Positions 6,584 through 52,866 of a stretch of DNA of 58,668 bases are shown here, one piece after another. Each line of letters opens with the position of its first letter. The stretch's first letter is position 1. The notes under the pieces are model-generated. The model did not search any database. It worked only from the letters and a program-made list of their open reading frames with translations, and was not told the origin of the DNA. The stretch lies in the NCBI GenBank assembly GCA_017397685.1, contig JAFQID010000048.1:1-58668 (forward strand), read 5' to 3'. The stretch is from Bacilli bacterium (GTDB lineage Bacteria > Bacillota_I > Bacilli_A > RF39 > UBA660). The position numbers were made by a program, and so were the translations under genes.

Positions 6584-8422
6584 TTATTCTATTCTATAAG
6601 GTGTTGTGTAGTTTCCTGTTCCATCTGATACTGTTGCGGTAGCTTTTAATGAAATTACCGGTATAATAAAATTTTCATTATTAACATCCATTGTACCAAT
6701 ACGATCAGAAACTGAAAACGCTCCAGTTGACAACGTTCCCATAGAATTAAACATATAGTATGGACTCATCGTCCAAAACTCAGTTCCATCCATATTTAAA
6801 TATAAAGTTTCGTTCATTTGCCCATAAACAGCTCCAGCAAAAGAAGCTTCATCAGCAGTCATAGTAGCTATTGGATAAGTTAATTTTCCATTTCCTCCCC
6901 AATTATCTCCACTTACTGTGAACTTATCTGCCGAACGTTCACATTTAAAAGTTGGTCTAGCATTAGCTTTAACCATCCAATTACTTATATCATATAATCT
7001 ATGTGTTGCTCCATAGTAAGTATTATCATCTGAACTTGAAGGATTACTTTTATCATTACAATACGGTACATTTGCTATATTATTTGAATATGATGCAAGT
7101 CCACTTGTACTATACCATTCGTCTATTACAGTTTTTAAATAACTCTCACCTGTACCATCATCCCAAACATATTCATTATAATTTTCGTTTTCACTACTCT
7201 CATTAAAAGGATAATATAAATTTAAAAGTCCTACATTAGTTCCCGTTACCGGACAAGTTCCATTTTTATATACCCCATTATATTTTAATCTTACTGAACC
7301 ATCTTCATTAGTTCTAATTATTCTCCAGCACATTTCATCATCTTTTTCATACACTTTCACAGCCTGACAACCATTATTATAAAAATCATCTTGGGTGCAT
7401 TCAGATTGCGTAGCATAATCAAAATACGATTCACCAGAAGAATGATATCCCCTATAAACTATAAAATCTTTCGCATATTTTCCATAAATTACATTATTAT
7501 TAATAACATTACCTCTAAAATAATATACTCTATCTCCAGTTCCATCGTTATTATAATCTTCTGTATATAACCCATTCGCAGTATAATATAAGCCATTAGT
7601 TATTTGTGTTGTATCAACTAAATCGTTCCATTCTTCATCCGTTGAATTTCCCTCTGATGTATATGCAAAATTAATATTTGCATCACTTTCTTCATTATTA
7701 TCTGCAAGTATCTTTTCATATAATGTAGGATTATTTTTAACTTTAAAATATACTGTACATTCAGTCGATTCAGTTAATGGTGTAACCGTTAGTGCTTTTG
7801 AATCATTATCCCAAGATACTGTTTCATTGTTAGTGCATGTATAATTATCCAGTTCATAATTTTGCTCTGAATCAAGTGAATTTGTTAATACTCCATCTAC
7901 ATATATTGCAATAATACTAATGTCATTTGTTATATAAACTCCAGTTACTTCAGTATATCCATTTGGAATTGTAACATTTTCTATTGTATTTGTTATATAT
8001 CCTGCTGCAACATCAAACTCCACTTCTATATTTGAAGATGATGAATTTGTTATTCTTATCAGTATTTCTCTTTTATTTGTTATCTCCCCTTTGGGTTCAT
8101 CAATGGTTTCATTATTATATTCTACTAATATATTTTGATTTGTCTTATATATTAATTTATAAAAAGATGGTACTGAATTAAGTGAAGTTATTTCAATCGT
8201 ATGTTCGGATTTACCTGGCACAGCAGTAATCTTAGTAGCTGCATTGTTATTTATTTTCATAGAATACATAAGCGAACCTATATACATTTCACTAGTTCTA
8301 TAATTATCCGATGAAAATATAAAAGACGAATAAGAAAACGCAATTAAAGGACAAAGTACCGTAATTAAAAGCGTTGCTAGTAAATATTTTTTAGATTTTG
8401 ATTTGAAATAATATTTAAACAT
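6584..8422 (-). CDS. Secreted or membrane-anchored hypothetical protein (WRIIR...GTG..TPY family)
   Basis: N-terminal hydrophobic segment ending IAFSYSSF; YYFRG..NN, WRIIRTNEDGSVRL, FWTMSP, GTGNYTTPYRIE. Confidence 0.75.
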   Translation of the reverse strand: MFKYYFKSKSKKYLLATLLITVLCPLIAFSYSSFIFSSDNYRTSEMYIGSLMYSMKINNNAATKITAVPGKSEHTIEITSLNSVPSFYKLIYKTNQNILVEYNNETIDEPKGEITNKREILIRITNSSSSNIEVEFDVAAGYITNTIENVTIPNGYTEVTGVYITNDISIIAIYVDGVLTNSLDSEQNYELDNYTCTNNETVSWDNDSKALTVTPLTESTECTVYFKVKNNPTLYEKILADNNEESDANINFAYTSEGNSTDEEWNDLVDTTQITNGLYYTANGLYTEDYNNDGTGDRVYYFRGNVINNNVIYGKYAKDFIVYRGYHSSGESYFDYATQSECTQDDFYNNGCQAVKVYEKDDEMCWRIIRTNEDGSVRLKYNGVYKNGTCPVTGTNVGLLNLYYPFNESSENENYNEYVWDDGTGESYLKTVIDEWYSTSGLASYSNNIANVPYCNDKSNPSSSDDNTYYGATHRLYDISNWMVKANARPTFKCERSADKFTVSGDNWGGNGKLTYPIATMTADEASFAGAVYGQMNETLYLNMDGTEFWTMSPYYMFNSMGTLSTGAFSVSDRIGTMDVNNENFIIPVISLKATATVSDGTGNYTTPYRIE

Positions 8423-8510
8423 GATAACAACTCCTCTATTTTATATTCTATTAATAATTTTATCACTATTTTAATTTAATGTCATTAAAAAAATGCACTT
8501 TCATGCATTT

Positions 8511-10196
8511 TTATATACTTAAGTTATCTAAGTTTTCAGTATTCTCTATTGGTTCCTCACTTGGCTGTTCTACTTCATTTTCCAAATTTTCATTAGTTGT
8601 TTCACTAGTTTCTTCACTAGTATTTTCTAACGTTTCAGAAGTTTCACTATTTGTTTGTTCTGTTTCTTCAGTAGTTTCTTCTTCAATTTCTTCTTGTTCT
8701 TTCCAAGTTGCTGTTAGTGTATCGCCATCTTGCGGTTCATATGTTTCTTCATCCACTTTTTCTTCTTGAGTAGTTGTATCACCATCTTGGATTTCCCAAC
8801 CATCAAATACTTTTTCTTTTTCTTCTACATTATCTCCTACAACCGGTGTATAGTCTTTACCAGCTTTTTGCTCTACTTCATATAAAGGAACTTCATTTTC
8901 AAGTATTATTTCAGTATTTGTATCTTTATCAACTACGACTTTACTAGACTCTGTAGGTGTTTGTACTGGCACATAGTAAGTTGGCGGTGTAAAGCCTAAC
9001 TCTTCTGTAATTTCTTCTTCAGTAGGAAGTTCAAAGTTTTCTTCATCATAACCTTTTTCTACTTCATGTGTATCAGATATTTCATCTCCATCAACATCAC
9101 TATTATATTTTACAACTTTTGTTCCACATACTGCATATAATTCTAGGTCTTCTGTTAAATAAGTTGTCTCACCTTTTTTATAATTAATAGTATTATCATT
9201 ATATAGTGACCAACCTAAAAGTTGACTATTATCACAATAATTATGATTAGAATTTTCTAATATAATAAACTCTGAATCTCTTTGAGTTATAGTATCTAAG
9301 TTTTCACCGGCATTGTTATAATATTTTATACTAACTTCTTTTGAACTAGCGGCATAAAGTGTTATTACACCATCTTTAGCAAAAGATGTTATATTTATAT
9401 TTAGTTCTGGAGCATATACATAATACTCTCCGTTATCATAATATAAATACCAACCTTTAAAAATATCACCATTTGCTAATGTTTGGGGATCTTCTAGAGG
9501 AACATAACCGTCATTTGCATTGTATGTTTTTGGTTGTGTTTCTGATACATCTGCGTCTATAAATGTTCCAGGAATCTTTGGATTTTCTTCTTTATACTCT
9601 ATAGTGTAGTTAATTACTTCACCTTTGATATAAATAACTATGTCTTCATACACTTTTGTATTTAAATCAAATTCATTTGAATAAACGCCTTTATCAAATT
9701 CAGTATAATACACACAATTTGTATATCCTGATGGACACCATGTAGTTGTTGGTATTTTACTTCCTTCATCAACTTTAGCAGAATCCATTTCATAATCTAT
9801 AAGTCCATCGTTTTCATCATAAACAATGTTATAAACATATGTAACTTTATATCTTACTACTTCTTCTTCCTTTTCTTCTTCCTTTTCATCTTTTTTGTTA
9901 TTTGATGATGTTTTTGTACTTGTTTTTTTAACTATAGAAGTTTTTTCTTTTTCTACAGTTTGTTCTTCTTTTTCTTCTTCATCATTTGGTACAACTACAT
10001 CTGTTTGTGGATTATTATTTTCACTTGGTTTATTTGGCACTTGTTCTTCTTTTTCACAACCAGATAATAAAGCAATAACTATACCTATGACAATAAGAAT
10101 GGCTACCGCTACAAAGATTATTATTCTTTTATCGCCATCATCTTCAATAAAATTATCTTTTTTAGTAGTAACCTTTTTAGCATTTTTACTGCTCAT
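8511..10196 (-). CDS. Surface (lipo)protein with InlB B-repeat-like modules and acidic Glu/Thr-rich tail
   Basis: TM segment ending LLSGC (possible lipobox); repeated ..Y..F/L.GW..LYA modules; EETSE-rich C-terminus. Confidence 0.65.
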   Translation of the reverse strand: MSSKNAKKVTTKKDNFIEDDGDKRIIIFVAVAILIVIGIVIALLSGCEKEEQVPNKPSENNNPQTDVVVPNDEEEKEEQTVEKEKTSIVKKTSTKTSSNNKKDEKEEEKEEEVVRYKVTYVYNIVYDENDGLIDYEMDSAKVDEGSKIPTTTWCPSGYTNCVYYTEFDKGVYSNEFDLNTKVYEDIVIYIKGEVINYTIEYKEENPKIPGTFIDADVSETQPKTYNANDGYVPLEDPQTLANGDIFKGWYLYYDNGEYYVYAPELNINITSFAKDGVITLYAASSKEVSIKYYNNAGENLDTITQRDSEFIILENSNHNYCDNSQLLGWSLYNDNTINYKKGETTYLTEDLELYAVCGTKVVKYNSDVDGDEISDTHEVEKGYDEENFELPTEEEITEELGFTPPTYYVPVQTPTESSKVVVDKDTNTEIILENEVPLYEVEQKAGKDYTPVVGDNVEEKEKVFDGWEIQDGDTTTQEEKVDEETYEPQDGDTLTATWKEQEEIEEETTEETEQTNSETSETLENTSEETSETTNENLENEVEQPSEEPIENTENLDNLSI

Positions 10197-10309
10197 CTTA
10201 ACCTCCCTATTATTATTTATTGGTAATATTTTTCTTACCTTGATTTCATTATAATTAATAATTTATTTAAATGCAATAGTTTGTTGTAAAATATATGTAA
10301 AATTAAAAT

Positions 10310-10332
10310 AAGTATCATTTTTATTGATACTT
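10310..10332 (-). terminator. Intrinsic terminator after leuS
   Basis: AAGTATCA-7 nt-TGATACTT. Confidence 0.6.
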
Positions 10333-12733
10333 ATTTTACAACTATGTTAACAATTTTATTAGGAACAACTATTTCTTTTATTATTTCTTTTCCTTCTAAA
10401 TGTCTTTGAATATTTTCAAGTTCTTTTGCTTTGTTTAAAAGCATTCCTTTATCTTCATCTAAATTTGCATCAAAAGTTGCTCTTAATTTTCCGTTTATAC
10501 TTACTGCAATTTTTACAGTTGATTCTACTGTTTTATTTTCATCATATTTAGGAAATTCTGTTTCACAAAGAGGTGTTTTCTCACCTATTAATTCATTTAA
10601 TTCTTCAGTAATATGTGGTGCGATTGGGTTAAGTAAATGAATTAATACTTTATAGTCAGCTTTAGTAATGTTTTCTTTTTCTTCATATTTATTTGAAAGT
10701 ATCATTAATGCTGAAACAGCTGTATTATAGTTCATAGTTTTTATATCATTTTCAACTTTTTTAATAGTTTGATTAATTAATATTTCCAAATCTTCTGAAT
10801 AATTATTTCCATCTACTACTTTTTCTTTTAATCTATATACCTTATCTAAAAATCTTTTACATCCTTTAAGACCATTTTCATTCCATGCAGCATCTTTTTC
10901 ATAGTCCCCAATAAACATTTCATATGTTCTAAGCGCATCAGAACCATATTCTTTTACCATGTCATCAGGATTAACTACATTACCTTTTGATTTACTCATT
11001 TTCTCGCCATTTTCACCTAGTATCATCCCATGAGCAACTCTCTTTTTAAATGGTTCTTTTGTAGGTACTAATCCTTGGTCGTATAGGAATTCATGCCAAA
11101 ATCTTGCGTATAATAAGTGTCTTGTCGCATGCTCCATTCCGCCATTATAATAATCTACCATACCCCAGTATTTAAGAGCATTCATACTTGCAAACTCTTT
11201 ATCATTATTTGGATCGGTATATCTTAACCAGTACCAACTTGAACCAGCCCAGTTTGGCATTGTATCTGTTTCTCTTCTAGCGTGTTCTCCACATTTTGGA
11301 CATGTTGTATTTACCCAATCATGTACATTAGCCAGTGGACTTTCTCCATTTTCAGTTGGTTCATATGATGGTACATCTGGAAGTATAAGTGGAAGTTCTT
11401 CATAAGGAAGTGGTACCCATCCACATTTTTCACAGTACACCATTGGAATTGGTTCTCCCCAGAAACGTTGTCTACTAAATATCCAGTCTTGAAGTCTATA
11501 ATTAGTCTTCTTTTCTCCAAATCCTTTTTCTTCAAGGTAACTTATAATTTTTTCTATACTTGTTTTTTTATCAGTTAACCCATTTAATACACCTGAGTTA
11601 ATCATTTTTCCTTCGCCAATATAAGCTTCTTTTTCGATATCTCCACCTTCGATTACAGGAATTATTTTTATACCAAATTTTTTAGCGAATTCATAATCTC
11701 TTTCATCATGTGCTGGTACGGCCATAATCGCACCTGTTCCATAGTTTGCTAAAACATAGTCACTTATCCATATTTCAATAGATTCGCCATTTAATGGATT
11801 AATACATCTTAAACCATCTATTTTAACACCAGTTTTTTCTTTTGTAAGATCAGTTCTCTCTATTTCTGTTTTACTTTTTGCATATTCTTGATATTTGTTT
11901 ATTTCATCTATGTTTTTGATTCTATCCTTATATTTTTCTAGGTATTTGTGCTCTGGTGACATAACCATGAATGTTACACCATAAAGTGTATCTGGTCTTG
12001 TTGTAAATACTGAAAGTTTATCCTCAGCATCTTCTAATTCAAAATGTACTATTGCTCCTTCGCTTTTACCAATCCAGTTTATTTGAGCTGTTTTGATTTT
12101 ATCCATGAAATCTGTTTCTTTAAGTCCTTCAAGCAATCTTTCTGAATAATCACTCATTCTAAGCATCCATTGTTCTTTAAGTTTCTTTTCTGTTTTTGCT
12201 CCACATCTTTCACATACTCCGCCCTCAGCATCTTCATTTGAAAGACCTGTTAAGCAATTTGGACACCAATTTATTTCTTTTTCATCTTTATATGCAAGTC
12301 CAGCTTCATAAAACTTTAAGAATTGCCACTGAGTCCATTTATAATACTCAGGATCAGTTGTTGCAAATTCTCTAGACCAATCAAATGAAAAACCTAAACC
12401 TTTCATTTGTCCTTTAAAAGTTTGAATACAATCTTTTACCATATTTGCTGGATATACTTTGTTTTTTATAGCATATTGTTCAGCTGGAGAACCAAATGCA
12501 TCCCATCCCATAGGGAATAGTACATTATATCCTTGCATTCTCATCATTCTTGCCATCGCATCAAGCGCGGTATAACTTCTTACATGTCCTACATGCAATC
12601 CACTTCCTGATGGATAAGGAAATTCTACTAATATGTAGTATTTTTCTTTATCACTTTCATTACTTGTTTTGAATGTTTCTTTTTCATCCCAATATTTTTG
12701 CCATTTTTCTTGAATTTCATTAAAATTATACAT
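10331..12733 (-). CDS. leuS: Leucine--tRNA ligase
   Basis: FPYPSGSGLHVGH (HIGH-type), KMSKSKGN, editing domain FTTRPDT and GTGAIMAVPAHDERD. Confidence 0.98.
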   Translation of the reverse strand: MYNFNEIQEKWQKYWDEKETFKTSNESDKEKYYILVEFPYPSGSGLHVGHVRSYTALDAMARMMRMQGYNVLFPMGWDAFGSPAEQYAIKNKVYPANMVKDCIQTFKGQMKGLGFSFDWSREFATTDPEYYKWTQWQFLKFYEAGLAYKDEKEINWCPNCLTGLSNEDAEGGVCERCGAKTEKKLKEQWMLRMSDYSERLLEGLKETDFMDKIKTAQINWIGKSEGAIVHFELEDAEDKLSVFTTRPDTLYGVTFMVMSPEHKYLEKYKDRIKNIDEINKYQEYAKSKTEIERTDLTKEKTGVKIDGLRCINPLNGESIEIWISDYVLANYGTGAIMAVPAHDERDYEFAKKFGIKIIPVIEGGDIEKEAYIGEGKMINSGVLNGLTDKKTSIEKIISYLEEKGFGEKKTNYRLQDWIFSRQRFWGEPIPMVYCEKCGWVPLPYEELPLILPDVPSYEPTENGESPLANVHDWVNTTCPKCGEHARRETDTMPNWAGSSWYWLRYTDPNNDKEFASMNALKYWGMVDYYNGGMEHATRHLLYARFWHEFLYDQGLVPTKEPFKKRVAHGMILGENGEKMSKSKGNVVNPDDMVKEYGSDALRTYEMFIGDYEKDAAWNENGLKGCKRFLDKVYRLKEKVVDGNNYSEDLEILINQTIKKVENDIKTMNYNTAVSALMILSNKYEEKENITKADYKVLIHLLNPIAPHITEELNELIGEKTPLCETEFPKYDENKTVESTVKIAVSINGKLRATFDANLDEDKGMLLNKAKELENIQRHLEGKEIIKEIVVPNKIVNIVVK

Positions 12734-17985: not shown

Positions 17986-19743
17986 CTACTGTTTAAGTTG
18001 AACCATCCAACTATTAAATATTTCACAGTTTGAACTTGTTGGTGGTGGTGATGCTTTTTCCATTTTTACAATCATTGGTATTTTAAATATTCTACCAAAT
18101 GCAACGCAAGTTCCTGACTGAAGTGTTTTTTGTTTATCAGTTATATCTTCACTCATATTTGGTATTGTTTTGCTTATATATTCCAGGTCAGCTGGATGAT
18201 TTATTTTAAATATTAGAAAATTTGCACATTGACTTATTACGTTTTCATTTAAATCAGTTGGTCTTTGTGTTATTAAATCTAACAAAAGTCCATATTTTCT
18301 TCCTTCTTTTGCGATACGTTCAAAGATATTATAACCAAATAGTTTTTTATCATCTCCTTCAAGAACATATCTATGTGCTTCTTCTAGAATCATGTGCATT
18401 GGAAAAGATGCCCTACTATCTAGTCCCTTAGTGTATTTCATAAACATTCTTGCAAATATTTTTGTTATTGTTCTTGCAAATCTATCATCAAGGTCTTCTA
18501 AGTTAAAGTTAACTATTTGTGCTTTTTTATTTCCATTTATTTGTAATTTTTTTATGTATTCATCTACTGTTATATAGCCTTCGTTTGTAAAGAATTTAGC
18601 GTTTGTTCTTGTCGCTAAATCATGAAGTCTAACCTTTAGGCTCATTGCTGAATCATACATATCTTCATTAAGTAAATAACGCTCACTATATAAAGTAAAA
18701 TTAAGAGCAACCTCTAAATCTTTAAGTGAATAACTTACATTTTGAGCATCATAGTTCCATTTCCTGTTTTCATCCACAAATGATGCAATATAATCACTTA
18801 TTATTTTTCTTTCTGCAAATCTTCCTTCACTATCTATATCAAAACAATTTCTAAACTCTCTAGTAAAACCAATTCCTGGTACTTCTGTTTTAAGTGAAAG
18901 TTCTGAAGTATTTGTTTCATTAAGTATTTCAAATATTTGATCTCTTATTCTAGCTGCTGTTTGATTTGTATACATTATAGAAAGTATTGCTTTTGAAAGA
19001 ATATGATTTTTAAAATCATGTGCCTCATCATCTTCTCTTGCAAACATTTTAGCATATATAAGAGCAGTTTCTATCATAGCAATCTGACTAAACTCAGTCG
19101 CATCAAGTAAGTTTAAAACATCCTCAAGTTCTAAAAGACATACTGGTATATTTAATTTCTCATAATTTTTCTTTTCACTTGTTGTTATTACTTTAAAAGA
19201 ATAATATGGATTATTTTCAGGTAAATCTTTAAATGCATTTATATATTCTCCATAACTATCAAATATAAATAAATTTGCCTTATATGGAATAACATTTCCT
19301 TTAGGAAATACATTTTGAATTATTCTACATATTCCATATGTTTTACCACTACCAGTATTTCCAAAAATAGCGGTATGATTTGAAAATAATTCATCTATAT
19401 CAACATATAATGGAAAATCATTATATAAAGGCGATACCCCTAATTTTATTGAGCGATTAGAATTTCCCGTTAAAATAGCTAATTCACTTTCATTAATTAT
19501 ACGAAGTGAAGCACTCATGCTTGGTTTTTTTATTAATCCACCAATAAAATTGTTTTCAGTAAGTTCTCCTAAAAAATTAATTCTTACGGTATTAGACTCT
19601 ATTGAGTCTACTTCTCCTAGTATTTTTTTATTAGTATCTTCAAATACAACATGTAAATTTATTAAATCGCCTACTTCAACTTTATCTTTGTTTATCTCAA
19701 CTATTGCACTATTTTTATTGATTGTTAGTATTTTACCAAACAT
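17986..19743 (-). CDS. HerA/DUF87-family ATPase (likely start ATG at 19743)
   Basis: HAS-barrel-like N-terminus, HTAIFGNTGSGKT Walker A, ILEEAH Walker B, ERIAKEGRKYG, TQRP. Confidence 0.88.
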   Translation of the reverse strand: MFGKILTINKNSAIVEINKDKVEVGDLINLHVVFEDTNKKILGEVDSIESNTVRINFLGELTENNFIGGLIKKPSMSASLRIINESELAILTGNSNRSIKLGVSPLYNDFPLYVDIDELFSNHTAIFGNTGSGKTYGICRIIQNVFPKGNVIPYKANLFIFDSYGEYINAFKDLPENNPYYSFKVITTSEKKNYEKLNIPVCLLELEDVLNLLDATEFSQIAMIETALIYAKMFAREDDEAHDFKNHILSKAILSIMYTNQTAARIRDQIFEILNETNTSELSLKTEVPGIGFTREFRNCFDIDSEGRFAERKIISDYIASFVDENRKWNYDAQNVSYSLKDLEVALNFTLYSERYLLNEDMYDSAMSLKVRLHDLATRTNAKFFTNEGYITVDEYIKKLQINGNKKAQIVNFNLEDLDDRFARTITKIFARMFMKYTKGLDSRASFPMHMILEEAHRYVLEGDDKKLFGYNIFERIAKEGRKYGLLLDLITQRPTDLNENVISQCANFLIFKINHPADLEYISKTIPNMSEDITDKQKTLQSGTCVAFGRIFKIPMIVKMEKASPPPTSSNCEIFNSWMVQLKQ

Positions 19744-19820
19744 AAAATCATCCCCATATTCTTTTTTATTTTCATAATTAATTTTATCATACTTTTTATC
19801 TGTAAACAACATATTTTAAA

Positions 19821-19845
19821 AACCTTAGAATTAGTTTCTAAGGTT
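19821..19845 (-). terminator. Intrinsic terminator after the glycine-rich gene pair
   Basis: AACCTTAGAA-TTAGT-TTCTAAGGTT perfect 10-bp stem. Confidence 0.75.
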
Positions 19846-21616
19846 AATTATCATAGTAAATAGCAAACGCACCATTTCCACTATTAGTTCCACTAAGATT
19901 AGATACTAAAGTAACGTTATCTCCAAATAAGTTTGTTCCGCCTTTTCCAGAATTATATGGTTTAGTTAAAGTATCACATCCATATCGACAAGTATTAGAA
20001 CCAGTCTTACAACTATCATAATAACTATCACAACCATATGAGCAAGTATTTGATCCAGTTTTACACGAATCCCATTTTTGTTTATAACTAGAACAATGGC
20101 ATCTTGTGCAACCTTTAATTCCACCACAACCAGACATATTAGGATTAGTACTACTATATTGATCACATGAATATTTATTACAAGTACTTGTGTTTACATA
20201 TCCACCCTTACATGTATTACTACCGTAATAGCAAGAACTACAGTTATAATCTACATATCCACCTTTACAAGTATTTCTTCCATAATAGCAAGAACTACAG
20301 TTGGCTTGATATGAATAATTATATCCGCTTCCTCCACCTGAACCATTAATCCCATCATTTCCAGAACCACCATTAGTTCCTGTTCCACCGGAAGATGCTC
20401 CTCCTGCTCCAGTATCACTTCCTCCCGAAGTGCCCGCTTGACCTCCGCCACCACCGGCACCAATTAAAATAATTGTACTATTACGTTTTACTGTTGTTGA
20501 ACCTCCACCATTATAAAGTCCTGTTCCTCCTCCATTATAGCCATTAGTTCCACCAGTATTAATATATAAAATATCTCCTTTTTCTAAATATACTCTTCCT
20601 TTAGCGTACCCACCATTTCCACCAATTGTTCCACCTTTTGCACCACTTGCTTCTAGTATATAATTACCAGAAACAAGCACATTATAACTTTGGGTTGTAT
20701 TGCTATAACTAAAAGATTTATCTAAATAATTTATATAACATGTTGTATTACTAGATATATTATTAATAGTATAATTATTTCCAGAAGCTGTTATATTTTG
20801 ACCATTATCACAATAAGAATTAGAATAAGCATAACTAGTAGACGGAACAACACTAAAAGTCTTACTAGTTAGACCATTAATAACTAATTTATTATTTTCA
20901 GTTGTACCATTATTAACAATTATATTAGCGGTATATGTATCAGGCTTATATTTTAAACTACAAGTAATATCACTTTTAATATTATAAAAACTTAATTTAT
21001 TTGTAGTAAAATTATAATCCATATCTCCTTCACAATTATAATTAGTACTATCAAAAATATAATTACTATTAGGTATAACTTCTAAATCCAATTTTGTATT
21101 TGCAATATATTCATTATAAATATTTTTTCCATTAATAGACGCATTTTCAAGATTAATATTAACTTTATATTTAACAAAAGTCCACGGATCAGAATATGTT
21201 CCTCTACCATTAACACTTACATATTTATTTATAAAATGAGTACTTCTTATACCACTTTTATCAATTTTATTTATTAAATTATATTTATTTTTAGAATTAT
21301 TTATTTCGTAAACTTTTTCTCCTTCTTCAGTCATAGTAAAATAATTAGATCCATCATAAAGATAAGTATCACCTTTATTATTTTTAGTAGCGTTAAACTC
21401 ACTTAAATTTACAAAACCACTTTTTTTAAACTTTTCTGATATAAATAATTTATCACTATAGCCAAAAGGAACATCTCCATCCATTAAATATAAATTATTA
21501 TCTTCTAATTGTTCTTTATAATTATTTACATAATTAATAGAATTCTCATAATTAATTTCTGCACATGTTTTTATTGGCAAAGCTATTAATAATAAAAATA
21601 TAAATATTTTTTTCAT
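19844..21616 (-). CDS. Secreted glycine-rich-domain protein with an 18-Cys insert (paralog A)
   Basis: Signal peptide MKKIFIFLLLIALPIKTCA; LEASGAKGG..GGNGGYAKG..YL..G.ILYINTGG glycine-rich (ALK/LTK-like) domain; Cys-rich repeats. Confidence 0.8.
   Translation of the reverse strand: MKKIFIFLLLIALPIKTCAEINYENSINYVNNYKEQLEDNNLYLMDGDVPFGYSDKLFISEKFKKSGFVNLSEFNATKNNKGDTYLYDGSNYFTMTEEGEKVYEINNSKNKYNLINKIDKSGIRSTHFINKYVSVNGRGTYSDPWTFVKYKVNINLENASINGKNIYNEYIANTKLDLEVIPNSNYIFDSTNYNCEGDMDYNFTTNKLSFYNIKSDITCSLKYKPDTYTANIIVNNGTTENNKLVINGLTSKTFSVVPSTSYAYSNSYCDNGQNITASGNNYTINNISSNTTCYINYLDKSFSYSNTTQSYNVLVSGNYILEASGAKGGTIGGNGGYAKGRVYLEKGDILYINTGGTNGYNGGGTGLYNGGGSTTVKRNSTIILIGAGGGGGQAGTSGGSDTGAGGASSGGTGTNGGSGNDGINGSGGGSGYNYSYQANCSSCYYGRNTCKGGYVDYNCSSCYYGSNTCKGGYVNTSTCNKYSCDQYSSTNPNMSGCGGIKGCTRCHCSSYKQKWDSCKTGSNTCSYGCDSYYDSCKTGSNTCRYGCDTLTKPYNSGKGGTNLFGDNVTLVSNLSGTNSGNGAFAIYYDN
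19976..20299 (-). repeat. Cys-rich insert of paralog A: 19-aa x2, core, 18-aa x2
   Basis: NCSSCYYGRNTCKGGYVDY / NCSSCYYGSNTCKGGYVNT and DSCKTGSNTCSYGCDSYY / DSCKTGSNTCRYGC. Confidence 0.9.
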
Positions 21617-21655
21617 ATTTAACCTCGATATTTAATCGTATTTAATATTTATTAA

Positions 21656-23584
21656 TTAACTAATAAAAGTTATTTTAACCGTACCATTACCAGAACGAAC
21701 ACCACTTGAATTGGTTACACTTATAACTTCACTTCCAAATGAGTTTTTGCCTCCAGTACCTGGTTTTCCTAGAACTGAACAATCATAAGTATTATATTCA
21801 GAACATCCACATTCATTACAATTTGCAGCGGTTGTACTTTTAGTACAAGAATAACTTTCTGTAGTATATGATGAACAATATGATCCACATTTAGAACAAT
21901 TTGTCCCTGTTTTCGTACACGAATAACTCTCTGTAGTATATGATGAACAAGTAGATCCACAGTTAGAACAACTTTTACCACTTTTAGTACAAGAATATGT
22001 TTCAGTTTGGCAATCACATTCATAATACTCACATACTTTTTTTCCATTAACATAACTACAACTATTGCATCTTCTACATGTAGTAGTTCTTGTACAAGTT
22101 CCAGTATACGAACATGAATTACAACTACTAGAAGCACATACTTGTCTTGAACATGTACCTGAATAAGAACATCTATTACAACTAGTAGATGCACAAACCT
22201 GTCTTGAGCATGTACCTGTGTAATTATATTTGCAAGTTGAACAAGTTTTACAAGTTCCATTACATGTTTTTGCATATGTTGGAGAAGAACTTCCTCCACC
22301 ACCATTTGTACCAGCTAATCCAGCACCAGCTCCTACTGAAGCACCACCTGCTCCACTACCATCACCGCCTGCACCACCAGCAGTTCCATCAGTACCAGTT
22401 GCTCCTCCACCAGCACCAATTATTAAATATGAACTTCCTTTTTTTATGGTACTGGCTCCACCTCCAACATATGAAGTTGATCCATTTTTATTTCCTCCAC
22501 CATTTGTTCCATCAGTACCACCAGTATTTATATATAAAATATTGCCTTTTTCTAAATAAACTTTTCCTTTAGCATAACCACCTTTTCCGCCACTATTACC
22601 ACCTTGTGCACCATACACTTCAAGATAATAATCACCACTAACCGCAACTTCATATTCAATAGTATTTGGAGAATATGGAACATCTATGTTTAAATAATTA
22701 ATATAACAAGTGGTATTACTGGATATATCGTTAATAGTATAATTATTTCCAGAAGCTGTTATTGTTTGATTATTATCACAATATGAGTTGGTATAAGAAT
22801 AATTAGTAGTAGGAACAACAGTAAAAGTCTTACTAGTTAGACCATTAATAACTAATTTATTATTTTCAGTTGTACCATTATTAACAATTATATTAGCGGT
22901 ATATGTATCTGGCTTATATTTTAAAGTGCAACTCACATCACCCTTTATATTATAAAAGTATAATTTGTTTGTACTAAAATTATAATCTGCTTCACCCTCA
23001 CAACTATAATTAGCTGGATCAAAAATATAATTATCATTTGGTGTTATATCTAATTCTAATTTTGTACTAGCAGTATATCCATCATAAACACTTTTACCAT
23101 TAATTAATGCATTTTCAAGTTTAAGACTTATTCGATATTTAATAAAACTCCAAGGATCAGAATATGTTCCGCTACCATTAACACAAACATCACTTCTTAT
23201 AAAATGTGTACTTCTTATATCACTTTTATCAGTTTTATTTATTAAATTATATTTATTTTTAGAAATATTTATTTCATAAACTTTCTCTCCATCTTCAGTC
23301 ATGGTAAAATAATTACCACCATCATAAAGATAAGTATCACCTTTATTATTTTTAGTAGTATTAAACTCACTTAAATTTACAAAACCACTTTTTTTAAACT
23401 TTTCTGATATAAATAATTTATCACTATATCCAAATGGAACATCTCCATCCATTAAATATAAATCATTATCTTCTAATTGTTCTTTATAATTATTTACAAA
23501 ATTAATAGAATCTTCATAATTAATTTTTGCCCATGTTTTTACTGGCAAAGCTATTAATAATAAAAATATAAATATTTTTTTCAT
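21656..23584 (-). CDS. Secreted glycine-rich-domain protein with a 32-Cys insert (paralog B; likely start ATG at 23584)
   Basis: Same signal peptide and N-terminal ~300 aa as paralog A; LEVYGAQGGNSGGKGGYAKG glycine-rich domain. Confidence 0.8.
   Translation of the reverse strand: MKKIFIFLLLIALPVKTWAKINYEDSINFVNNYKEQLEDNDLYLMDGDVPFGYSDKLFISEKFKKSGFVNLSEFNTTKNNKGDTYLYDGGNYFTMTEDGEKVYEINISKNKYNLINKTDKSDIRSTHFIRSDVCVNGSGTYSDPWSFIKYRISLKLENALINGKSVYDGYTASTKLELDITPNDNYIFDPANYSCEGEADYNFSTNKLYFYNIKGDVSCTLKYKPDTYTANIIVNNGTTENNKLVINGLTSKTFTVVPTTNYSYTNSYCDNNQTITASGNNYTINDISSNTTCYINYLNIDVPYSPNTIEYEVAVSGDYYLEVYGAQGGNSGGKGGYAKGKVYLEKGNILYINTGGTDGTNGGGNKNGSTSYVGGGASTIKKGSSYLIIGAGGGATGTDGTAGGAGGDGSGAGGASVGAGAGLAGTNGGGGSSSPTYAKTCNGTCKTCSTCKYNYTGTCSRQVCASTSCNRCSYSGTCSRQVCASSSCNSCSYTGTCTRTTTCRRCNSCSYVNGKKVCEYYECDCQTETYSCTKSGKSCSNCGSTCSSYTTESYSCTKTGTNCSKCGSYCSSYTTESYSCTKSTTAANCNECGCSEYNTYDCSVLGKPGTGGKNSFGSEVISVTNSSGVRSGNGTVKITFIS
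21779..22264 (-). repeat. Cys-rich insert of paralog B: 57-bp and 72-bp tandem repeats
   Basis: tgtcttga at 22143 and 22200 (57 bp, GTCSRQVCAS.SC..CSY); gaataact at 21849 and 21921 (72 bp, TESYSCTK....C..CGS.CSSYT). Confidence 0.9.
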
Positions 23585-23597
23585 CTCATACCTCTCT

Positions 23598-24014
23598 TTA
23601 TTCAAATTCACAAAATACATGTATAAGTATTGGATATTCTTTATAATCTAGTTTTTCTTTATTTAATGGATCTATCGTAATTCCTGTTGTATCATTTTCA
23701 CAATTTTCAAGTATTTCTACATTATAACCTAGGTCTTTTATATTATTAATATTTAAATAATATGTTTCATTGTTTGTTTTATATGATTCATACTTTTTAT
23801 TATTAAATAAGTCTATTCCAATATCATATAATGTTTTACTAACCTTATCTCGAATAGATAAATTCTCTAAATAATTATCTTGATTATTATTTTCATTTGT
23901 ATTATTTTGTTGTCCACTTCCATTATTATTGTTATTATTTTGTACATTATCACAAGACGTTAAAATCATAAATACAAAAGCAAATATTATTGTCATTCTT
24001 ATTATTTTTTTCAT
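23598..24014 (-). CDS. Putative lipoprotein
   Basis: MKKIIR..hydrophobic..ILTSC lipobox followed by an Asn-rich linker. Confidence 0.75.
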   Translation of the reverse strand: MKKIIRMTIIFAFVFMILTSCDNVQNNNNNNGSGQQNNTNENNNQDNYLENLSIRDKVSKTLYDIGIDLFNNKKYESYKTNNETYYLNINNIKDLGYNVEILENCENDTTGITIDPLNKEKLDYKEYPILIHVFCEFE

Positions 24015-28027: not shown

Positions 28028-28059
28028 AGTTTATAGAATATTTTTATTTTCTATAAACT
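28028..28059 (-). terminator. Intrinsic terminator after the pilin-like gene
   Basis: AGTTTATAGAA-10 nt-TTCTATAAACT. Confidence 0.65.
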
Positions 28060-28771
28060 AATTAATTACAATTTCAACATTATCGTCATTAATCATTTTT
28101 GCTGATAAATCAGTTATTTGAGGATTTTCAAGTTGCTGTACATTATATATTCCCATTACTCTCCACATAACATCATCATATTTTAAGTAATTGTTAACAT
28201 CACTACCACCTGAAATTAAGCAAGCATCAATTAATCCTGATGTTATATTACTACAATTACACGAATTACCATTAATATCTTTTCCAACAAATGTTCCATT
28301 TTCTAGTTTTTCACATACTATTGCTGTTAAAATTCCATCATCTTCTGGTGAAGTGTCCGCACCAAACTCGCCAACTACACCAACCGCAGCTTGTTTAAGT
28401 AATACCCAACTATCATTCATCGATACCTTATCTACCGGATTTACTACACAACCTTCTTCAATTTTATAACTTTCATCTTCTATTTTATTACATTCATCAT
28501 CACTTGATGTTGCTTCAGAATCTAAATAATTATTTTGTATTAATTCTGAAACATATACTTTAACTTCAGTTTTACCGTTAAAGATATCTGGATTATCCGC
28601 CCCATATAATTCAGCTGCGGTTATAATATGCTCCTTCTTAGATGAAAGCATTCTTTTGTTTATATTTTTGTTTACTACAATTATGCTTGGTACAGCAATT
28701 ACGGCTATTATAGCTATAATAGCTATTACTACTAACATTTCAGATAATGTAAATCCTTTTTTATTCTTCAT
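28058..28771 (-). CDS. Type IV pilin-like protein with class III signal peptide
   Basis: MKNKKG|FTLSEMLVVIAIIAIIAVIAVP. Confidence 0.88.
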   Translation of the reverse strand: MKNKKGFTLSEMLVVIAIIAIIAVIAVPSIIVVNKNINKRMLSSKKEHIITAAELYGADNPDIFNGKTEVKVYVSELIQNNYLDSEATSSDDECNKIEDESYKIEEGCVVNPVDKVSMNDSWVLLKQAAVGVVGEFGADTSPEDDGILTAIVCEKLENGTFVGKDINGNSCNCSNITSGLIDACLISGGSDVNNYLKYDDVMWRVMGIYNVQQLENPQITDLSAKMINDDNVEIVIN

Positions 28772-44878: not shown

Positions 44879-47800
44879 TTACTTATAATATGTCCTTCCG
44901 CCACCATTATTTCTAATTGTAGCACCTGAAGCTGAAAATGTTCCAGCAGCATTATAAATAGTTGGGTGACCAGAACTATTATTTTGAAATGTTCCACCAT
45001 AAACTCTAACAACATCAGAAGCACCAGTAACAGCTACTAAATAGTTATAACCGGTAGTAAATGTTCCTGCATATATATCCGCACTTCCACCAGCAAATAA
45101 TAAAGCAGGAGAATCAACAGAACTTGAAAAAGTTCCAGAATTAATAGTTATTTTCCCACCCTGAGAAGTTACAAGAGCATAAATAGTTCCAGTACCAGAA
45201 TTATGTAAAAATTGAGGACTACCTTCAAAAGTTACAGTATTAGCTCTTTGACCTAATAGAGTTCTATAATTAGATGTAACCTTTGTACTACCTTTTATAG
45301 ACATATTACCCCAATTAGTTAAACATGTATAAGAAAGCTCTGATTCAGTAGTTTCACACTTCAAAGTCAAATTACTAATAGTAGCAGTTCCATAATTTCT
45401 AATACAGCTAGCACCATTGTTACAATTAAATGTTCCTCCTGTATAATTAAGAGTTCCTCCAGAAACAACATAAATAGACCATATACCACCATCTTCAACA
45501 TAAGTTCCTGAAGAAGTAAGTGTTCCTCCAGAAATATTTAATTGACCTCCAGACTGAACAGTAAACTCACCCTCATGAATATTAGTAGTATCATTTCCTG
45601 TTTTTGCAATAATAGAAAGCGATCCACTGCTAAAAGTTTGAGTACCAGATATAGATGAAATAGCATTCATATTATTATCAGTAAATGAAGCTGTTGCATG
45701 TGTAGCAGTACTTCCAGCAGAAGAAGTAATATAACAAGGACCTGTAATACTACCACCAGTTACAGTAAGTGTACCAGCAGTATTATTAAACACACAAATA
45801 CTACCAGTATGTGTTAAAGTTCCACTACTCATATTTAAAGTTTTAGAATTGTTTATCAAAGCAGCAGATGTACTATTTGTTGAATAAGTACCACCTGAAA
45901 TAGTTAAACTATTAGTATTATTTATAACAGGACTAGTAGAAGCAGCTGTTGTATTTCTTACAGTACCACTACCAGATATAGTAAGTGTTCCATTATTAGT
46001 AATATTACCAGTAATAGTCTTTGAGTTTAAAGCTAACTCTACATTTTTATTAGCAGGAATTGTAGCACCTGAACTACTATTAGCAGCCATAGTAACAATA
46101 ACCTTACTATTATCAGCAGGAACAGCATTAATAGCATCAGCTAAAGAAGCATATGTATTAGTTCCAATTTGAGCAATAGGATTCGTTGCTTGCCAGTGTG
46201 CATATAAAGTTACATTTGACAATCCTATCCATTTACTACTTGCATTAGTATACCCACTTACACTAGCAACTAATGTTCCATCAGCATTAATAACTTTTGT
46301 ACCACCACTAGCTGCAGTATACCATCCATCTAAAGTATAACTAGTTTTTGTAGGTACTGTAATAGTTGTCACACCACCATCATACGTTGCAGTTACACTT
46401 GAACTACCATTAGTTGTTGCTCCGTTTCCATTTAATGTAACAGTAGAGGTTATCGCATTCCAAGAAGCGGTTAAAGTCGTTGCTGAAGTTCCACCTGTGA
46501 AAGTTGTTCCAGACAAGCTTCCACCACCACTTTTTGTCCATCCACCAAAGTTATATCCGGTTCTAGTTGGATTAGCAATAGTTACTGTTTGTTCATAATA
46601 TAACTCACCAGGATTATTTCCACTATACGTTCCACCATTTGCATCTATTGTTAATCCATATTTATTTCTTGTATAATCATAAGTTATTACGTTCTTGTTA
46701 TATTCATCAGTATCAACATCAATTATTATTTTTTGAGTTGTTGTTGGTGATGTAAATCCAGTATATGTTTTTATAGTACCAGTTATTTCACTTCCATAAT
46801 CCGCATTACCACTTACTGTATCAGCAGCAACAACAGTATAACCATTACCATCAACATTCATTTGTCTATGGTATACAACATATGGATATTGATTAACACT
46901 CCAACCAGCTGTTACAGTAGATGCCTTTGCTTCACTCATCGTAAATGTATTTCCATTAAGTGTACCAGCATTTTCTGACCAACCAGTAAAAGTATAACCA
47001 GTTCTATCAGGTGTTGATAATGTAGTTTGAGCCTCATAATACATATTAACAGTAGAATTAGAAGTTGAACTATTATATGTCCCACCATTTGGATTTATTG
47101 TTAAATTATATTTGTTTCTTGAATAATTATAATTTACTACGTTCTTAGTTGGTGGATTACTATCAGCAACAATTGTTATTTCCTTAGAACTTGGTGATGT
47201 AAATCCAGTATATGTTTTTAATTCTGGAGTTACTTTACTACCAAAACCAGCACTTCCACTAGCTGTATCAGCATCTACTAAAGTATATCCACTTCCACTT
47301 ACATTCATTTTATTATGATATGCTATCCATGGATAATTATTTACTTGCCATGTAGCTGTTAAAGAACTATGTTGAGCATCACTCATTTTAAACGTTGTAC
47401 TATTAGTAAGTTCTCCACCACTTACGCTCCAACCTGTAAACGTATATCCTTCTCTTTCAGGCGTAGAAATAGTAGTTGTTGCTTCATAATACATTTGAAC
47501 ACTAGTATTCCCACTATAAGTTCCACCATTAGCATCAATAGTCAACGTATATTGATTTCTAGTATAATTATATTCAACTATATTATCACCAGTTCCAATA
47601 GTGATTGATTTTTTACTTGGTGAAGTAAACCCAGCATAAGTTTTAACATCAGGACTTATTACATCACCATAATTAGCATTTGCTGTAGAACTTTCTGCCG
47701 TAGTATATCCACTTCCACTTATATTCATTTTATTATGTTTAACAGTATACTCATAACTATTAACATTCCAGTTAGCTGTTAAAGTACAATTCTCACTTCC

Positions 47801-51776: not shown

Positions 51777-52628
51777 TTATTTTAAACTTTCAATTTCTTT
51801 AATAGTTAAACCAGTAACTTCAGATACAAGAGAAATATCTAAATCTTTTTTAATCATATTCTTAGCTATTTCTATTTGTTTAGAATATTCACCTTTCTCA
51901 ATACCTTCATCTTTCGCATATAGTAAAGCTGATTCCATAATTAATCTTTGATCTTCTTCCCATGTTAAGATATCTTTAAACTCATCATCATTATTCATAT
52001 CTATAGTATCTTTAGCATACTTTTCCATAATCTTATCTCCCTTCGTATACTTAAGTAATTCCTCTTTGTCTTCTATTGTTAACATCTTTAAATACTTATA
52101 CTTAAGTCCCTCTTCTTTAGTATAACATGAGTTTTTAAACTTTTCCATATCGATTTTATACACTACTAACTTATCAGAATATATATCCTTTTTACCATTT
52201 TCTTCCCTTAATTCATATTTACTAACAAGTTTATCATAATCTCTATTCCAATCCATATCAATAAGTACCCCTTTTCTAGAAGTATAATAACTATCACCTT
52301 CTTTATATTGATTTAAATATTTCGAAAGTAAATATCTTAAATTTCTATCTCTTATCGCTTTAGACATTCCAGTATTTATTTCTATATCTATAAACATATC
52401 ATCTATTTTAGCAATACAATCAACTCTCTTTCCCTGTTCCCATATACTATTTTTTTCAAGTTCATTATTCTTAATCTCAAGAAACTTTATCTTCTTTTCC
52501 AATATTTCCTCAAGCACATTTTTAAGTATACTCTTTCCCTTTTCACACCCAACTACACTTTTAAATAACGCATCAGACTTACAAGACGCTATCTTATTAG
52601 AATCATTATTTTCTTTTAAATTATCCAT
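51777..52628 (-). CDS. Rpn-family PD-(D/E)XK nuclease / putative transposase (likely start ATG at 52628 after AAGGAGG)
   Basis: SDALFK, RVDCIA, IDIEIN, RNLRY, DEGIEKG, IAKNMIK..DISLVSEVTGLTIKEI. Confidence 0.88.
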   Translation of the reverse strand: MDNLKENNDSNKIASCKSDALFKSVVGCEKGKSILKNVLEEILEKKIKFLEIKNNELEKNSIWEQGKRVDCIAKIDDMFIDIEINTGMSKAIRDRNLRYLLSKYLNQYKEGDSYYTSRKGVLIDMDWNRDYDKLVSKYELREENGKKDIYSDKLVVYKIDMEKFKNSCYTKEEGLKYKYLKMLTIEDKEELLKYTKGDKIMEKYAKDTIDMNNDDEFKDILTWEEDQRLIMESALLYAKDEGIEKGEYSKQIEIAKNMIKKDLDISLVSEVTGLTIKEIESLK

Positions 52629-52866
52629 ATACTTTTCCTCCTTAGACCAAAAGTATAACAAAAGAAAAAAACACTTTCAAACAGGCATTATAAAACTTTT
52701 AAACACATAAAAAAATAATAAATAAAGTTTCTCCTTAAAGAAAAAAACTATTTATATTATAAAAATACACCCAAAATCATTTTTTATATAATTTTTATTT
52801 TTTTCACTAATATTTTGCAATTAAAAAAAGTAATGTCTGAATATCTCTAACATTACTTAATATTTT

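Follow-up and report, generated by a model that had tools for sequence, protein, structure and literature searches.

Two tandem genes, here called A and B, lie in a 58,668-nucleotide (nt) stretch of DNA (hereafter the window) that covers positions 1 to 58,668 of contig JAFQID010000048.1, from assembly GCA_017397685.1 of a Bacilli bacterium (RF39; UBA660). Both encode proteins with a glycine-rich C-terminal domain resembling the TG (TNF-like and polyglycine) domain of ALK and LTK, and in both this domain is interrupted by a long Cys-rich insert. In our reading, to which we give a probability of about 0.68, the insert is an antiparallel two-armed stalk that is fastened by nested inter-arm disulfides, occupies a loop of the TG-like domain and changes in length by pairs of units.

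In the proposed architecture, A and B would be Sec-secreted surface proteins whose C-terminal domain is a bacterial relative of the ALK/LTK TG domain, the stalk taking the place of one of its surface loops. The chain would run outward through short Cys-rich units, turn at the tip and come back through an equal number of complementary units in reversed order, such that the nth outbound unit counted from the base packs on the nth inbound unit counted from the base. Designating the Cys residues of an A-type outbound unit as Ca-x2-Cb-x6-Cc and those of its nested inbound partner as Cd-x6-Ce-x3-Cf, the bonds Ca-Cf, Cb-Ce and Cc-Cd would form three disulfide rungs per unit pair, i.e. six rungs in the arms of A plus three core disulfides, and up to 16 rungs in B. 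During evolution, the stalk would lengthen or shorten as each arm gains or loses one unit in concert with the other.

Cys inserts of A and B

The insert of A contains 18 Cys (amino acids (aa) 440-547, nt 19976-20299) and that of B 32 Cys (aa 441-602, nt 21779-22264), with 16 on each side of C-SYVNGKKV-C. These numbers, like the placement of the repeats (Table 1), agree with the hand counts of an initial annotation made from the letters of the window; the interval given there, 19976-22264, extends from the last Cys of the A insert to the first Cys of the B insert.

In A, the outbound arm contains NCSSCYYG(R/S)NTCKGGYV twice and the inbound arm DSCKTGSNTC(S/R)YGCD twice. The two repeats had been described as sequence-unrelated, which did not hold: they are variants of one unit with the core C-x-x-G-x-N-T-C, more precisely C-x-[TY]-G-x-N-T-C in A. 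The outbound (O) unit has its third Cys at -3 relative to this core (N-C-S-S-C...) and the inbound (I) unit at +4 (...C-x-Y-G-C-D). Offsets from one Cys to the next are 3, 7 and 9 in the outbound arm and 7, 4 and 7 in the inbound arm, i.e. there is no regular i, i+2 spacing.

Between these arms, the segment C-GGIKG-C-TR-C-H-C fits a second unit type, C-x5-C-x2-C-x-C, which lies on the inbound side of a large knob in the homologs P0003 and P0016 (P numbers designate homologous proteins throughout). Because of this homology, the tip of A is more likely the loop DQYSSTNPNMSG than C-GGIKG-C, and the midpoint of the hairpin, which had been set at the latter, was probably misplaced. Residues 495-508 of A (20093-20134; SGCGGIKGCTRCHC) also resemble a [2Fe-2S] ferredoxin cluster-binding loop (3ah7, SACGGVKACTTCHC) at E = 0.11. 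As Sec export makes a cluster unlikely, this match is probably due to chance, and the residues are more simply taken as a C-x5-C-x2-C-x-C stalk unit.

In B, the outer 4-Cys units of each arm are degenerate, and the good copies are the two 19-aa units outbound and the two 24-aa units inbound. The Cys spacings of the outbound arm (3,2,2,7,4,4,2,5,4,4,2,5,5,2,2) parallel those of the inbound arm when the latter are read in reverse (7,1,2,8,9,3,2,6,9,3,2,6,6,1,4), with r = 0.76 (permutation p = 0.0015), as against r = 0.0 in the forward comparison.

Repeats are also visible at the DNA level, in A as two copies of 57 nt (20195-20302) and in B as two copies of 57 nt (22088-22201) and two copies of 72 nt (21838-21981). 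Identity between copies at third codon positions is 0.63 outbound and 0.61 inbound in A, and 0.63 outbound and 0.71 inbound in B. Over segments as short as these, the values are compatible with duplication at about the same time on both arms.

Mirror order of the units among homologs

Homologs were collected by two word-indexed searches and one exhaustive profile search (E <= 1e-3), which yielded about 250 proteins; the last of these, with a whole-protein profile, matched 3,420 cluster representatives, many of them via the N-terminal or Ig-like (immunoglobulin-like) domains alone. The related loci come from assemblies of uncultured human-gut bacteria labelled 'Bacilli bacterium', 'Mollicutes bacterium', 'Mycoplasmatota bacterium' and 'Clostridium sp. 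CAG:524 / CAG:1000'. A small hidden Markov model of the A-type unit was built and used to parse every protein, the arms being defined as the units on either side of the largest gap. Units were coded as O (outbound type), I (inbound type), 4 (both extra Cys present) or 2 (neither present).

The two arms correspond to each other in a nested, antiparallel manner. Equal unit numbers, with complementary types in mirror order, were found in 94 of the 100 proteins with at least two confident units, and after clustering at 80 % identity, 46 of 51 non-redundant homologs were mirror-symmetric under strict automatic scoring, from 1+1 to 5+5 units. The architectures parsed (a slash marking the gap between arms) were O/I, OO/II, OOO/III, OOOOO/IIIII, O4/4I, OO4/4II, 4242/2424, 24/42, 242/242 and 2/2, and those read by hand were 2O/I2, 2OO/II2 and O42/24I. 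A '4' unit always stands opposite a '4' unit (seven architectures). When an arm mixes unit types, nested pairing fits seven cases of eight and parallel pairing a single one (242/242, which is itself palindromic).

Independently of unit types, Cys spacings across 72 inserts gave a median r of 0.43 in the mirror comparison vs -0.19 in the forward comparison (Wilcoxon p = 2.5e-9). Since an inverted DNA duplication would not give the same protein units in reversed order, we take the mirror order to reflect selection on the folded protein. The expectation of the initial annotation that repeat numbers on the two arms match across homologs was borne out with one clear mismatch (P0065, see below), and its proposal that the arms pair in antiparallel fashion is supported by the mirror order, by the mixed-type arms and by the joint losses of partner Cys described in the next section.

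The automatic scoring returned P0026, P0038, P0205, P0080, P0117 and P0065 as non-mirror. The first three are mirror-symmetric on inspection, provided that an O unit whose loop has seven residues is included (a one-residue insertion that the scoring misses). The pattern of P0117 is ambiguous. P0080, a 167-aa fragment, presents a knobless minimal stalk, O-4-I, with 10 Cys, in which the central 4-Cys unit seems to be the tip itself. All the inspected stalks that are inserted in the glycine-rich domain were matched in unit number.

The unit is also found in other settings. In the pilin-fused relatives P0027-32, the order is the opposite one, from I-type to O-type, and the unit pair therefore works in either orientation. 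P0098 and P0117 have an A-like N-terminal domain, long C-x-x-C-P-x-G-Y (furin-like/GCC-like) repeat arrays in place of the TG domain and C-x-x-G-x-N-T-C units at the extreme C-terminus, which implies that the stalk module is used in more than one context.

Proposed pairing of the Cys residues

The Cys content of the inserts behaves pairwise. It is even in 73 of 74 non-redundant inserts (binomial p = 4e-21), and the residues that come and go are those expected to be partners. Many proteins lack both Ca and Cf (the '2' units); Cb and Ce are jointly missing from P0013, the P0034 clade and P0020, and Cc and Cd from P0051, while in the P0223 clade an extra outermost Cys has been gained on both arms. 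The Cb/Ce losses represent three independent events, as both residues are retained in the nearest relatives, P0014 (with 70 % identity outside the stalk) and P0216 (86 %). Loop lengths change jointly too: in P0023, P0207 and P0213, the loop of the second outbound unit is shortened to C-x4-C, and the nested partner likewise has C-x4-C. Judged from these sequence comparisons, three inter-arm rungs per unit pair (Ca-Cf, Cb-Ce and Cc-Cd) are favoured but not proven.

We infer that the bonds are disulfides and that the stalk is rigid and projects from its domain. Cys pairs are kept in the Ig-like domains of A (195/219 and 269/293) and in the neighbouring lipoprotein, and these bacteria therefore appear to make extracytoplasmic disulfides. 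Thioether cross-links (of the lanthionine or sactionine type) were also weighed, since the stalks are rich in Ser and Thr; they were rejected because they impose no even Cys count and because the proteins are Sec substrates of 600 aa.

Alternative readings

Several observations weigh against a disulfide-linked, two-armed stalk. The sole clear mismatch in unit number is that of P0065, a type IV pilin in which the stalk is a free C-terminal appendage with six units on one arm vs eight on the other. Collapse of the assembly is an unconvincing cause, given that the DNA repeats match at only 88-89 %, and the mismatch is probably genuine; it is better explained by the free C-terminal position of the stalk, where the chain need not return to a base. 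Such unequal numbers are what two independent tandem arrays of self-contained repeats (EGF, TNFR or furin-like) around a central domain could give, equal numbers elsewhere being coincidental or a by-product of duplication, and sequential Cys-rich repeats are indeed the common case in extracellular proteins. We regard this as extremely improbable. With three Cys per A-type unit, an arm that has an odd number of units would be left with an unpaired Cys, and independent arrays predict neither the equal numbers and mirror-ordered types of the 46 symmetric proteins, nor the joint Cys losses and matched loop lengths in partner units, nor the paired +1/+1 changes on a conserved knob.

One insert (P0039, 15 Cys) has an odd Cys count. 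The host looks strictly anaerobic, with rubrerythrin and acetate kinase genes, and neither a thiol oxidase gene nor a Dsb-like gene was found within the window. These last features would suit a metal-stapled stalk, in which the Cys residues bind zinc or another metal in zinc-ribbon-like or cluster sites and form no disulfides; the frequent C-x2-C motifs of the stalks and the ferredoxin-like loop in the core of A (E = 0.11) point the same way. Metal binding is nonetheless very unlikely in our judgement. Each unit has three Cys and each unit pair six, which is not a multiple of four; Cys are gained and lost in pairs, not in fours; the even counts are often not divisible by four (18, 22, 26, 30); conserved His or Asp ligands are absent; and the proteins are Sec-exported, at a locus whose other exported domains (the Ig-like domains and the partner lipoprotein) keep Cys pairs. 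The initial annotation had considered the arms as 'disulfide- or metal-stapled': even counts and pairwise losses speak for the first term, and pairwise changes in units of three Cys speak against the second.

The structural predictions leave room for a third reading. The AlphaFold2 model of A has a mean pLDDT (predicted local distance difference test) of 73.7, with values of 85-94 in the Ig-like and glycine-rich parts. It places outbound strands at residues 434-445, 451-464 and 470-477, and inbound strands of matching length at 544-552, 526-538 and 511-520. Confidence falls symmetrically along the stalk, from about 72-75 at the base to 31-38 in the core; the arm strands have pLDDT values of 50-75, i.e. 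a moderate confidence only, and the core stays below 40. Strands are interrupted at each G-x-N-T. The model agrees with paired arms and would fit a continuous ribbon and a stack of hairpins alike, local Cb-Cc hairpins being equally compatible with it. Moreover, the odd Cys spacings of 3 and 7 misfit a regular two-stranded beta ladder, which would need bulges.

In such a stack of local hairpins, each unit would be closed by its own Cb-Cc (or Cd-Ce) bond around the G-x-N-T turn and only Ca-Cf would join the arms. The predicted strands break exactly at G-x-N-T-C, spacings of 3 and 7 residues would sit more easily in a hairpin loop than in a regular ladder, and the single 4-Cys tip unit of P0080, which has no knob, must fold on itself. 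The stack would also account for mirror order, for O/I complementarity and for even parity. The pattern of losses is harder to reconcile with it: Cb and Ce were lost together three independent times and Cc and Cd once, each of which would orphan two Cys, and no unit was seen to lose Cb and Cc while its partner kept Cd and Ce. Neither does the stack require a '4' unit opposite a '4' unit. We consider local hairpins rather unlikely, and retain the nested ladder with three rungs per unit pair as the preferred reading.

For B, AlphaFold2 gives no confident fold of the stalk (pLDDT 24-37), and the only strands predicted in it are those of a small hairpin (E509-512/E515-518) around N-G at the proposed tip. 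A homolog search with the B stalk alone returned nothing, not even B itself; the motifs ESYSCTK and TCSRxVC recur in P0053 only, in swapped order. The case for a stalk in B is thus an internal one, drawn from the mirrored spacing and even number of its Cys residues, to which analogy with the other family members may be added. The function proposed below for both proteins is read from context only.

Length variation and other unit families

Closely related knobs are found on stalks of different length, with equal changes on the two arms. The knobs of P0038 (1+1) and P0205 (2+2) are 88 % identical, those of P0231 (1+1) and P0015 (2+2) 86 % identical, and those of P0019 (3+3) and P0010 (5+5) 52 % identical. 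Many relatives bear a Cys-rich knob of 60-200 aa at the tip, as against a 39-aa core with six Cys in A and a bare loop of eight residues in B; in these two near-knobless proteins, it may be the stalk or its tip loop that provides the functional surface.

At least two further Cys-repeat families occupy the TG loop among P0043, P0037, P0104, P0057, P0042, P0097, P0110 and P0239, and both use one unit type on both arms. A 12-aa unit, TYKSCxxSSCGCA, is present nine times on each arm in P0043 (58 Cys, with a joint loss in the outermost pair) and three times on each arm in P0037 and P0104. The second of these families has a unit of 17-18 aa, Y-x-C-N-C-x-T-C-G-G-G-C, and the CNCxTCGGGC unit is found about five times on each arm at the same loop in P0042. 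P0037 and P0239 have in common the tip motif YD-x-(T/S)QGC-x-x-AGDCKCI.

We lean slightly towards a broader view, in which the stalk is a hitherto undescribed kind of architecture, a genetically modular, length-tunable cystine ladder, the protein counterpart of an RNA hairpin stem, with at least three to four unit families filling the same loop, and in which strictly anaerobic, genome-reduced gut Bacilli carry out heavy extracytoplasmic disulfide formation. If true, this would amount to a new rule of protein architecture, in which selection keeps the mirror-ordered units of the two arms in step and the number of unit pairs determines how long the covalently rung stalk is, and would provide a natural rigid spacer usable as an engineering scaffold, a purpose that bovine ultralong CDR3 (third complementarity-determining region) stalks already serve. 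It would also mean that uncultured, genome-reduced, anaerobic gut bacteria of the Bacilli/Mollicutes-like type export proteins with 18 to more than 50 paired Cys. Anaerobic Firmicutes reportedly avoid disulfides (Dutton et al. 2008), and the finding would then point to a novel route of oxidation, or to folding that takes place once the protein is exposed outside the cell.

Gene organisation and host domain

A and B are tandem paralogs, both with a Sec-type signal peptide at the N-terminus. They are 76-78 % identical over aa 1-385; past residue 385 the glycine-rich region diverges, and the Cys-rich regions of the two proteins are unrelated. The open reading frame (ORF) of B contains an upstream in-frame ATG (MYFVNLNKERYE-; 23585-23620), 12 codons ahead of MKKIFIF, and alignment with A and the homologs suggests position 23584 as the true start. 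Long ORFs also run across A and B in alternative frames or on the opposite strand (21769-22305 on the minus strand, 22189-22572 and 22230-22559 on the plus strand, and several within 19966-20463), one of which encodes a Pro/Ala-rich product of 109 aa opposite the glycine-rich region. They are by-products of the biased coding of Gly and Cys and no separate genes.

The host domain of A and B is a relative of PF12810 (ALK_LTK_GRD) at the level of profile and fold, below Pfam's own threshold. Pfam (E <= 0.1) and NCBIfam scans of A and B gave no matches, and both proteins score below the Pfam gathering threshold for PF12810. When the C-terminal domains of 17 family members were scanned with PF12810, three matched, with a best E of 0.007, and precomputed PF12810 matches exist for some relatives (P0205, P0212, P0038); some distant homologs pair PF12810 with a prepilin signal. 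Comparison by hhalign of a profile of the C-terminal half of the family with PF12810-annotated proteins, an alignment that includes three stalk-bearing members, gave a probability of 100 % and E = 2e-42 over 152 columns up to the stalk. In a Foldseek search of the PDB with the model of A, the best 21 matches were ALK/LTK TG or glycine-rich-domain structures (7nwz, 7ls0, 7nx1 and others), with a probability of 1.0 and E values of 5e-4 to 6e-3; TM-scores on the target were 0.2-0.37, which are low because the query has four domains. These comparisons identify the glycine-rich domain, already proposed as the base of the stalk in the initial annotation, as being of ALK/LTK type. Among viral predicted structures, neighbours of A include tail proteins, tail-fibre proteins and 'glycine-rich domain' proteins.

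Where relatives lack the stalk, a short loop occupies its insertion site (GGGGSGFYGG-ASGDSGACY-GGGGGGSSYI), which shows the Cys region to be inserted into a single loop of the TG-like domain.

Genomic context and putative function

The neighbourhood of A and B in the window is one of chromosomal housekeeping genes, with, around the two paralogs, LeuRS, a GH31 glycosidase, a HerA-like ATPase, the small lipoprotein, an MBL-fold protein and TruA. ECF transporter genes, a prepilin-like gene, acetate kinase, rubrerythrin, Fur, NusG, RNase R, RecA and CysRS are also present. The GC content is 21-33 %, and the host is taken to be an uncultured and anaerobic gut bacterium of low GC content and of the Bacilli/Mollicutes type.

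Table 1. Coordinates of genes A and B, of the parts of their products and of neighbouring genes in the window
Feature	Position	Strand	Description
Gene A	19844..21616	-	590 aa; signal peptide, N-terminal domain, two Ig-like beta domains, ALK/LTK-like glycine-rich (TG) domain with Cys stalk
A TG-like domain	19847..20713	-	aa 302-590; stalk in place of the short loop between GGGSGYNYSY and KPYNSGKGGTNLF
A outbound arm	20189..20302	-	aa 439-476; two 19-aa O units, N-C-S-S-C-Y-Y-G-x-N-T-C-K-G-G-Y-V; Cys 440, 443, 450 and 459, 462, 469
A tip/core	20072..20188	-	aa 477-515; 6 Cys (479, 484, 497, 503, 506, 508); one C-x5-C-x2-C-x-C unit
A inbound arm	19964..20071	-	aa 516-551; two 18-aa I units, D-S-C-K-T-G-S-N-T-C-x-Y-G-C-D; Cys 518, 525, 529 and 536, 543, 547
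Gene B	21656..23584	-	642 aa from MKKIFIF; ORF up to 23620; paralog of A with another stalk
B TG-like domain	21659..22681	-	aa 302-642; stalk at the same loop as in A
B outbound arm	22058..22264	-	aa 441-509, C1-C16; four 4-Cys units, the middle two being the 19-aa repeat TCSRQVCAS(T/S)SCN(R/S)CSY(S/T)G
B tip loop SYVNGKKV	22034..22057	-	aa 510-517
B inbound arm	21779..22033	-	aa 518-602, C17-C32; four 4-Cys units, including the 24-aa repeat twice
HerA/FtsK-like ATPase	17986..19812	-	DUF87, E = 5e-21; 32 nt downstream of A, same strand
Small lipoprotein	23598..24014	-	138 aa; lipobox LTSC; two conserved C-terminal Cys
Prepilin-type protein	28058..28771	-	N_methyl motif MKNKKGFTLSEML...; N-terminus resembles that of P0065

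The small lipoprotein is a candidate partner, anchor or chaperone of the stalk proteins. Its homologs (113-138 aa, lipobox L-x-G/S-C) adjoin A-like genes in 11 of 16 related loci, often with one or two copies per A-like gene (e.g. at 7869-8279, 8287-8628, 9984-10376 and 10452-10802 in locus L002); among loci L001-L015, they have two conserved Cys about 30 residues apart at the C-terminus and no Pfam match. The HerA-like ATPase was also considered as a partner of A and is probably unrelated, not being a neighbour of A-like genes in the 16 related loci. A-like genes themselves form arrays of two to three paralogs in about half of the related loci, with hypervariable stalks and knobs.

In P0027-32 and P0223-230, a prepilin signal is fused to the TG domain and stalk, so that type IV pili or pseudopili may carry the stalk in some species. 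No functional annotation accompanies any listed member of the stalk family. The signal peptide, the Ig-like domains, the tail-fibre-type domain, the prepilin fusions, the variable arrays and the conserved lipoprotein neighbour lead us to view A and B as putative surface adhesins or receptor-binding proteins, in which the stalk would serve as a spacer holding a binding tip at a set distance from the cell or pilus. Identity of 76-78 % up to the glycine-rich domain combined with unrelated stalks is what one would expect of a locus for variable surface recognition or antigenic variation. A testable role, that of adhesin or receptor-binding scaffold, is hereby offered for the bacterial relatives of the ALK/LTK glycine-rich domain.

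Other genes of the window, all on the minus strand, may be mentioned. Two encode putative surface proteins, one of 1378 aa with Listeria-Bacteroides repeats (Flg_new, E = 5e-39) and a camelysin-like N-terminus (44879-49015), the other large and with a divergent InlB B-repeat (54754-56382). Two proteins of 560-610 aa (6584-8422 and 8511-10196) have N-terminal hydrophobic segments and no Pfam match, and homologs of the former recur near A-like genes in loci L007 and L016. A PD-(D/E)XK transposase-like gene (51777-52661; PF12784, E = 9e-18) lies between the RecA and CDP-alcohol phosphatidyltransferase genes.

Comparison with known systems

The initial annotation knew of no described bacterial family with this architecture, and no precedent was found in the literature searched, in Pfam or in the PDB. 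Literature searches on PF12810, on the unit motif and on cystine ladders or stalks returned no description of a mirror-repeat Cys stalk, and PDB sequence searches with A, with one knob and with a five-unit O array gave only, for A, the chance-level ferredoxin loop (E = 0.11) and pannexin noise. Once a structure exists, the chance that the stalk will come to be regarded as a new architecture is substantial.

The TG domain of ALK and LTK (PF12810) has the same glycine-rich motif pattern as the host domain of A and B, and in ordinary PF12810 relatives the loop that bears the stalk is short. ALK does have a Cys-rich, EGF-like module, which follows the TG domain and is not inserted in it, as the entry titles of the ALK matches in the PDB also indicate. 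The polyglycine-II adhesins of phage tail fibres (T4-like gp38, Salmonella phage S16, the Pam3 glycine-rich domain) likewise present variable receptor-binding segments on a glycine-rich scaffold; their variable elements are short loops, with no long Cys-laddered stalk.

Length-matched segments with a functional module at the tip are known from antiparallel coiled-coil stalks (SMC/Rad50 arms, dynein stalk), which are alpha-helical, non-covalent and intracellular. The stalk described here, unlike these, is predicted in A to be beta-rich, would be disulfide-linked and extracellular, and is composed of unit types. Short Ser/Thr/Gly-rich Cys repeats of 12-19 aa recall sequential Cys-rich folds (the 12-mers of the Tenebrio antifreeze beta-helix, granulin, EGF, TNFR and furin-like modules), where disulfides are local or join neighbouring repeats in simple tandem order; the stalk differs from them by its units of three Cys and by the mirror order on two arms. 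It also differs from zinc-ribbon or Cys4 sites, as its Cys residues are not organised in fours.

The bovine ultralong CDR H3 offers a closer analogy: matched ascending and descending arms with different motifs project a small disulfide-rich knob from a beta-sandwich. That stalk, a product of V(D)J recombination, is a simple beta ribbon with neither repeat units nor disulfide rungs. The stalk of A and B consists of germline-encoded repeat units with, in the proposed pairing, up to three Cys rungs per unit pair; its knob is minimal in A and absent in B, and its host is a TG-like domain and no immunoglobulin V-domain.

Cystine-ladder hairpins (theta-defensins and the protegrin/tachyplesin type) have nested C(i)-C(n+1-i) rungs, two to three in number, at regular i, i+2 spacing. 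The joint losses of partner Cys in the stalk family support the same nested connectivity, as far as sequence comparison can indicate it. Unlike these peptides, the stalk would have 6 to more than 20 rungs, is modular by units with odd spacings (3, 7, 9), and is inserted in a protein of 600 aa.

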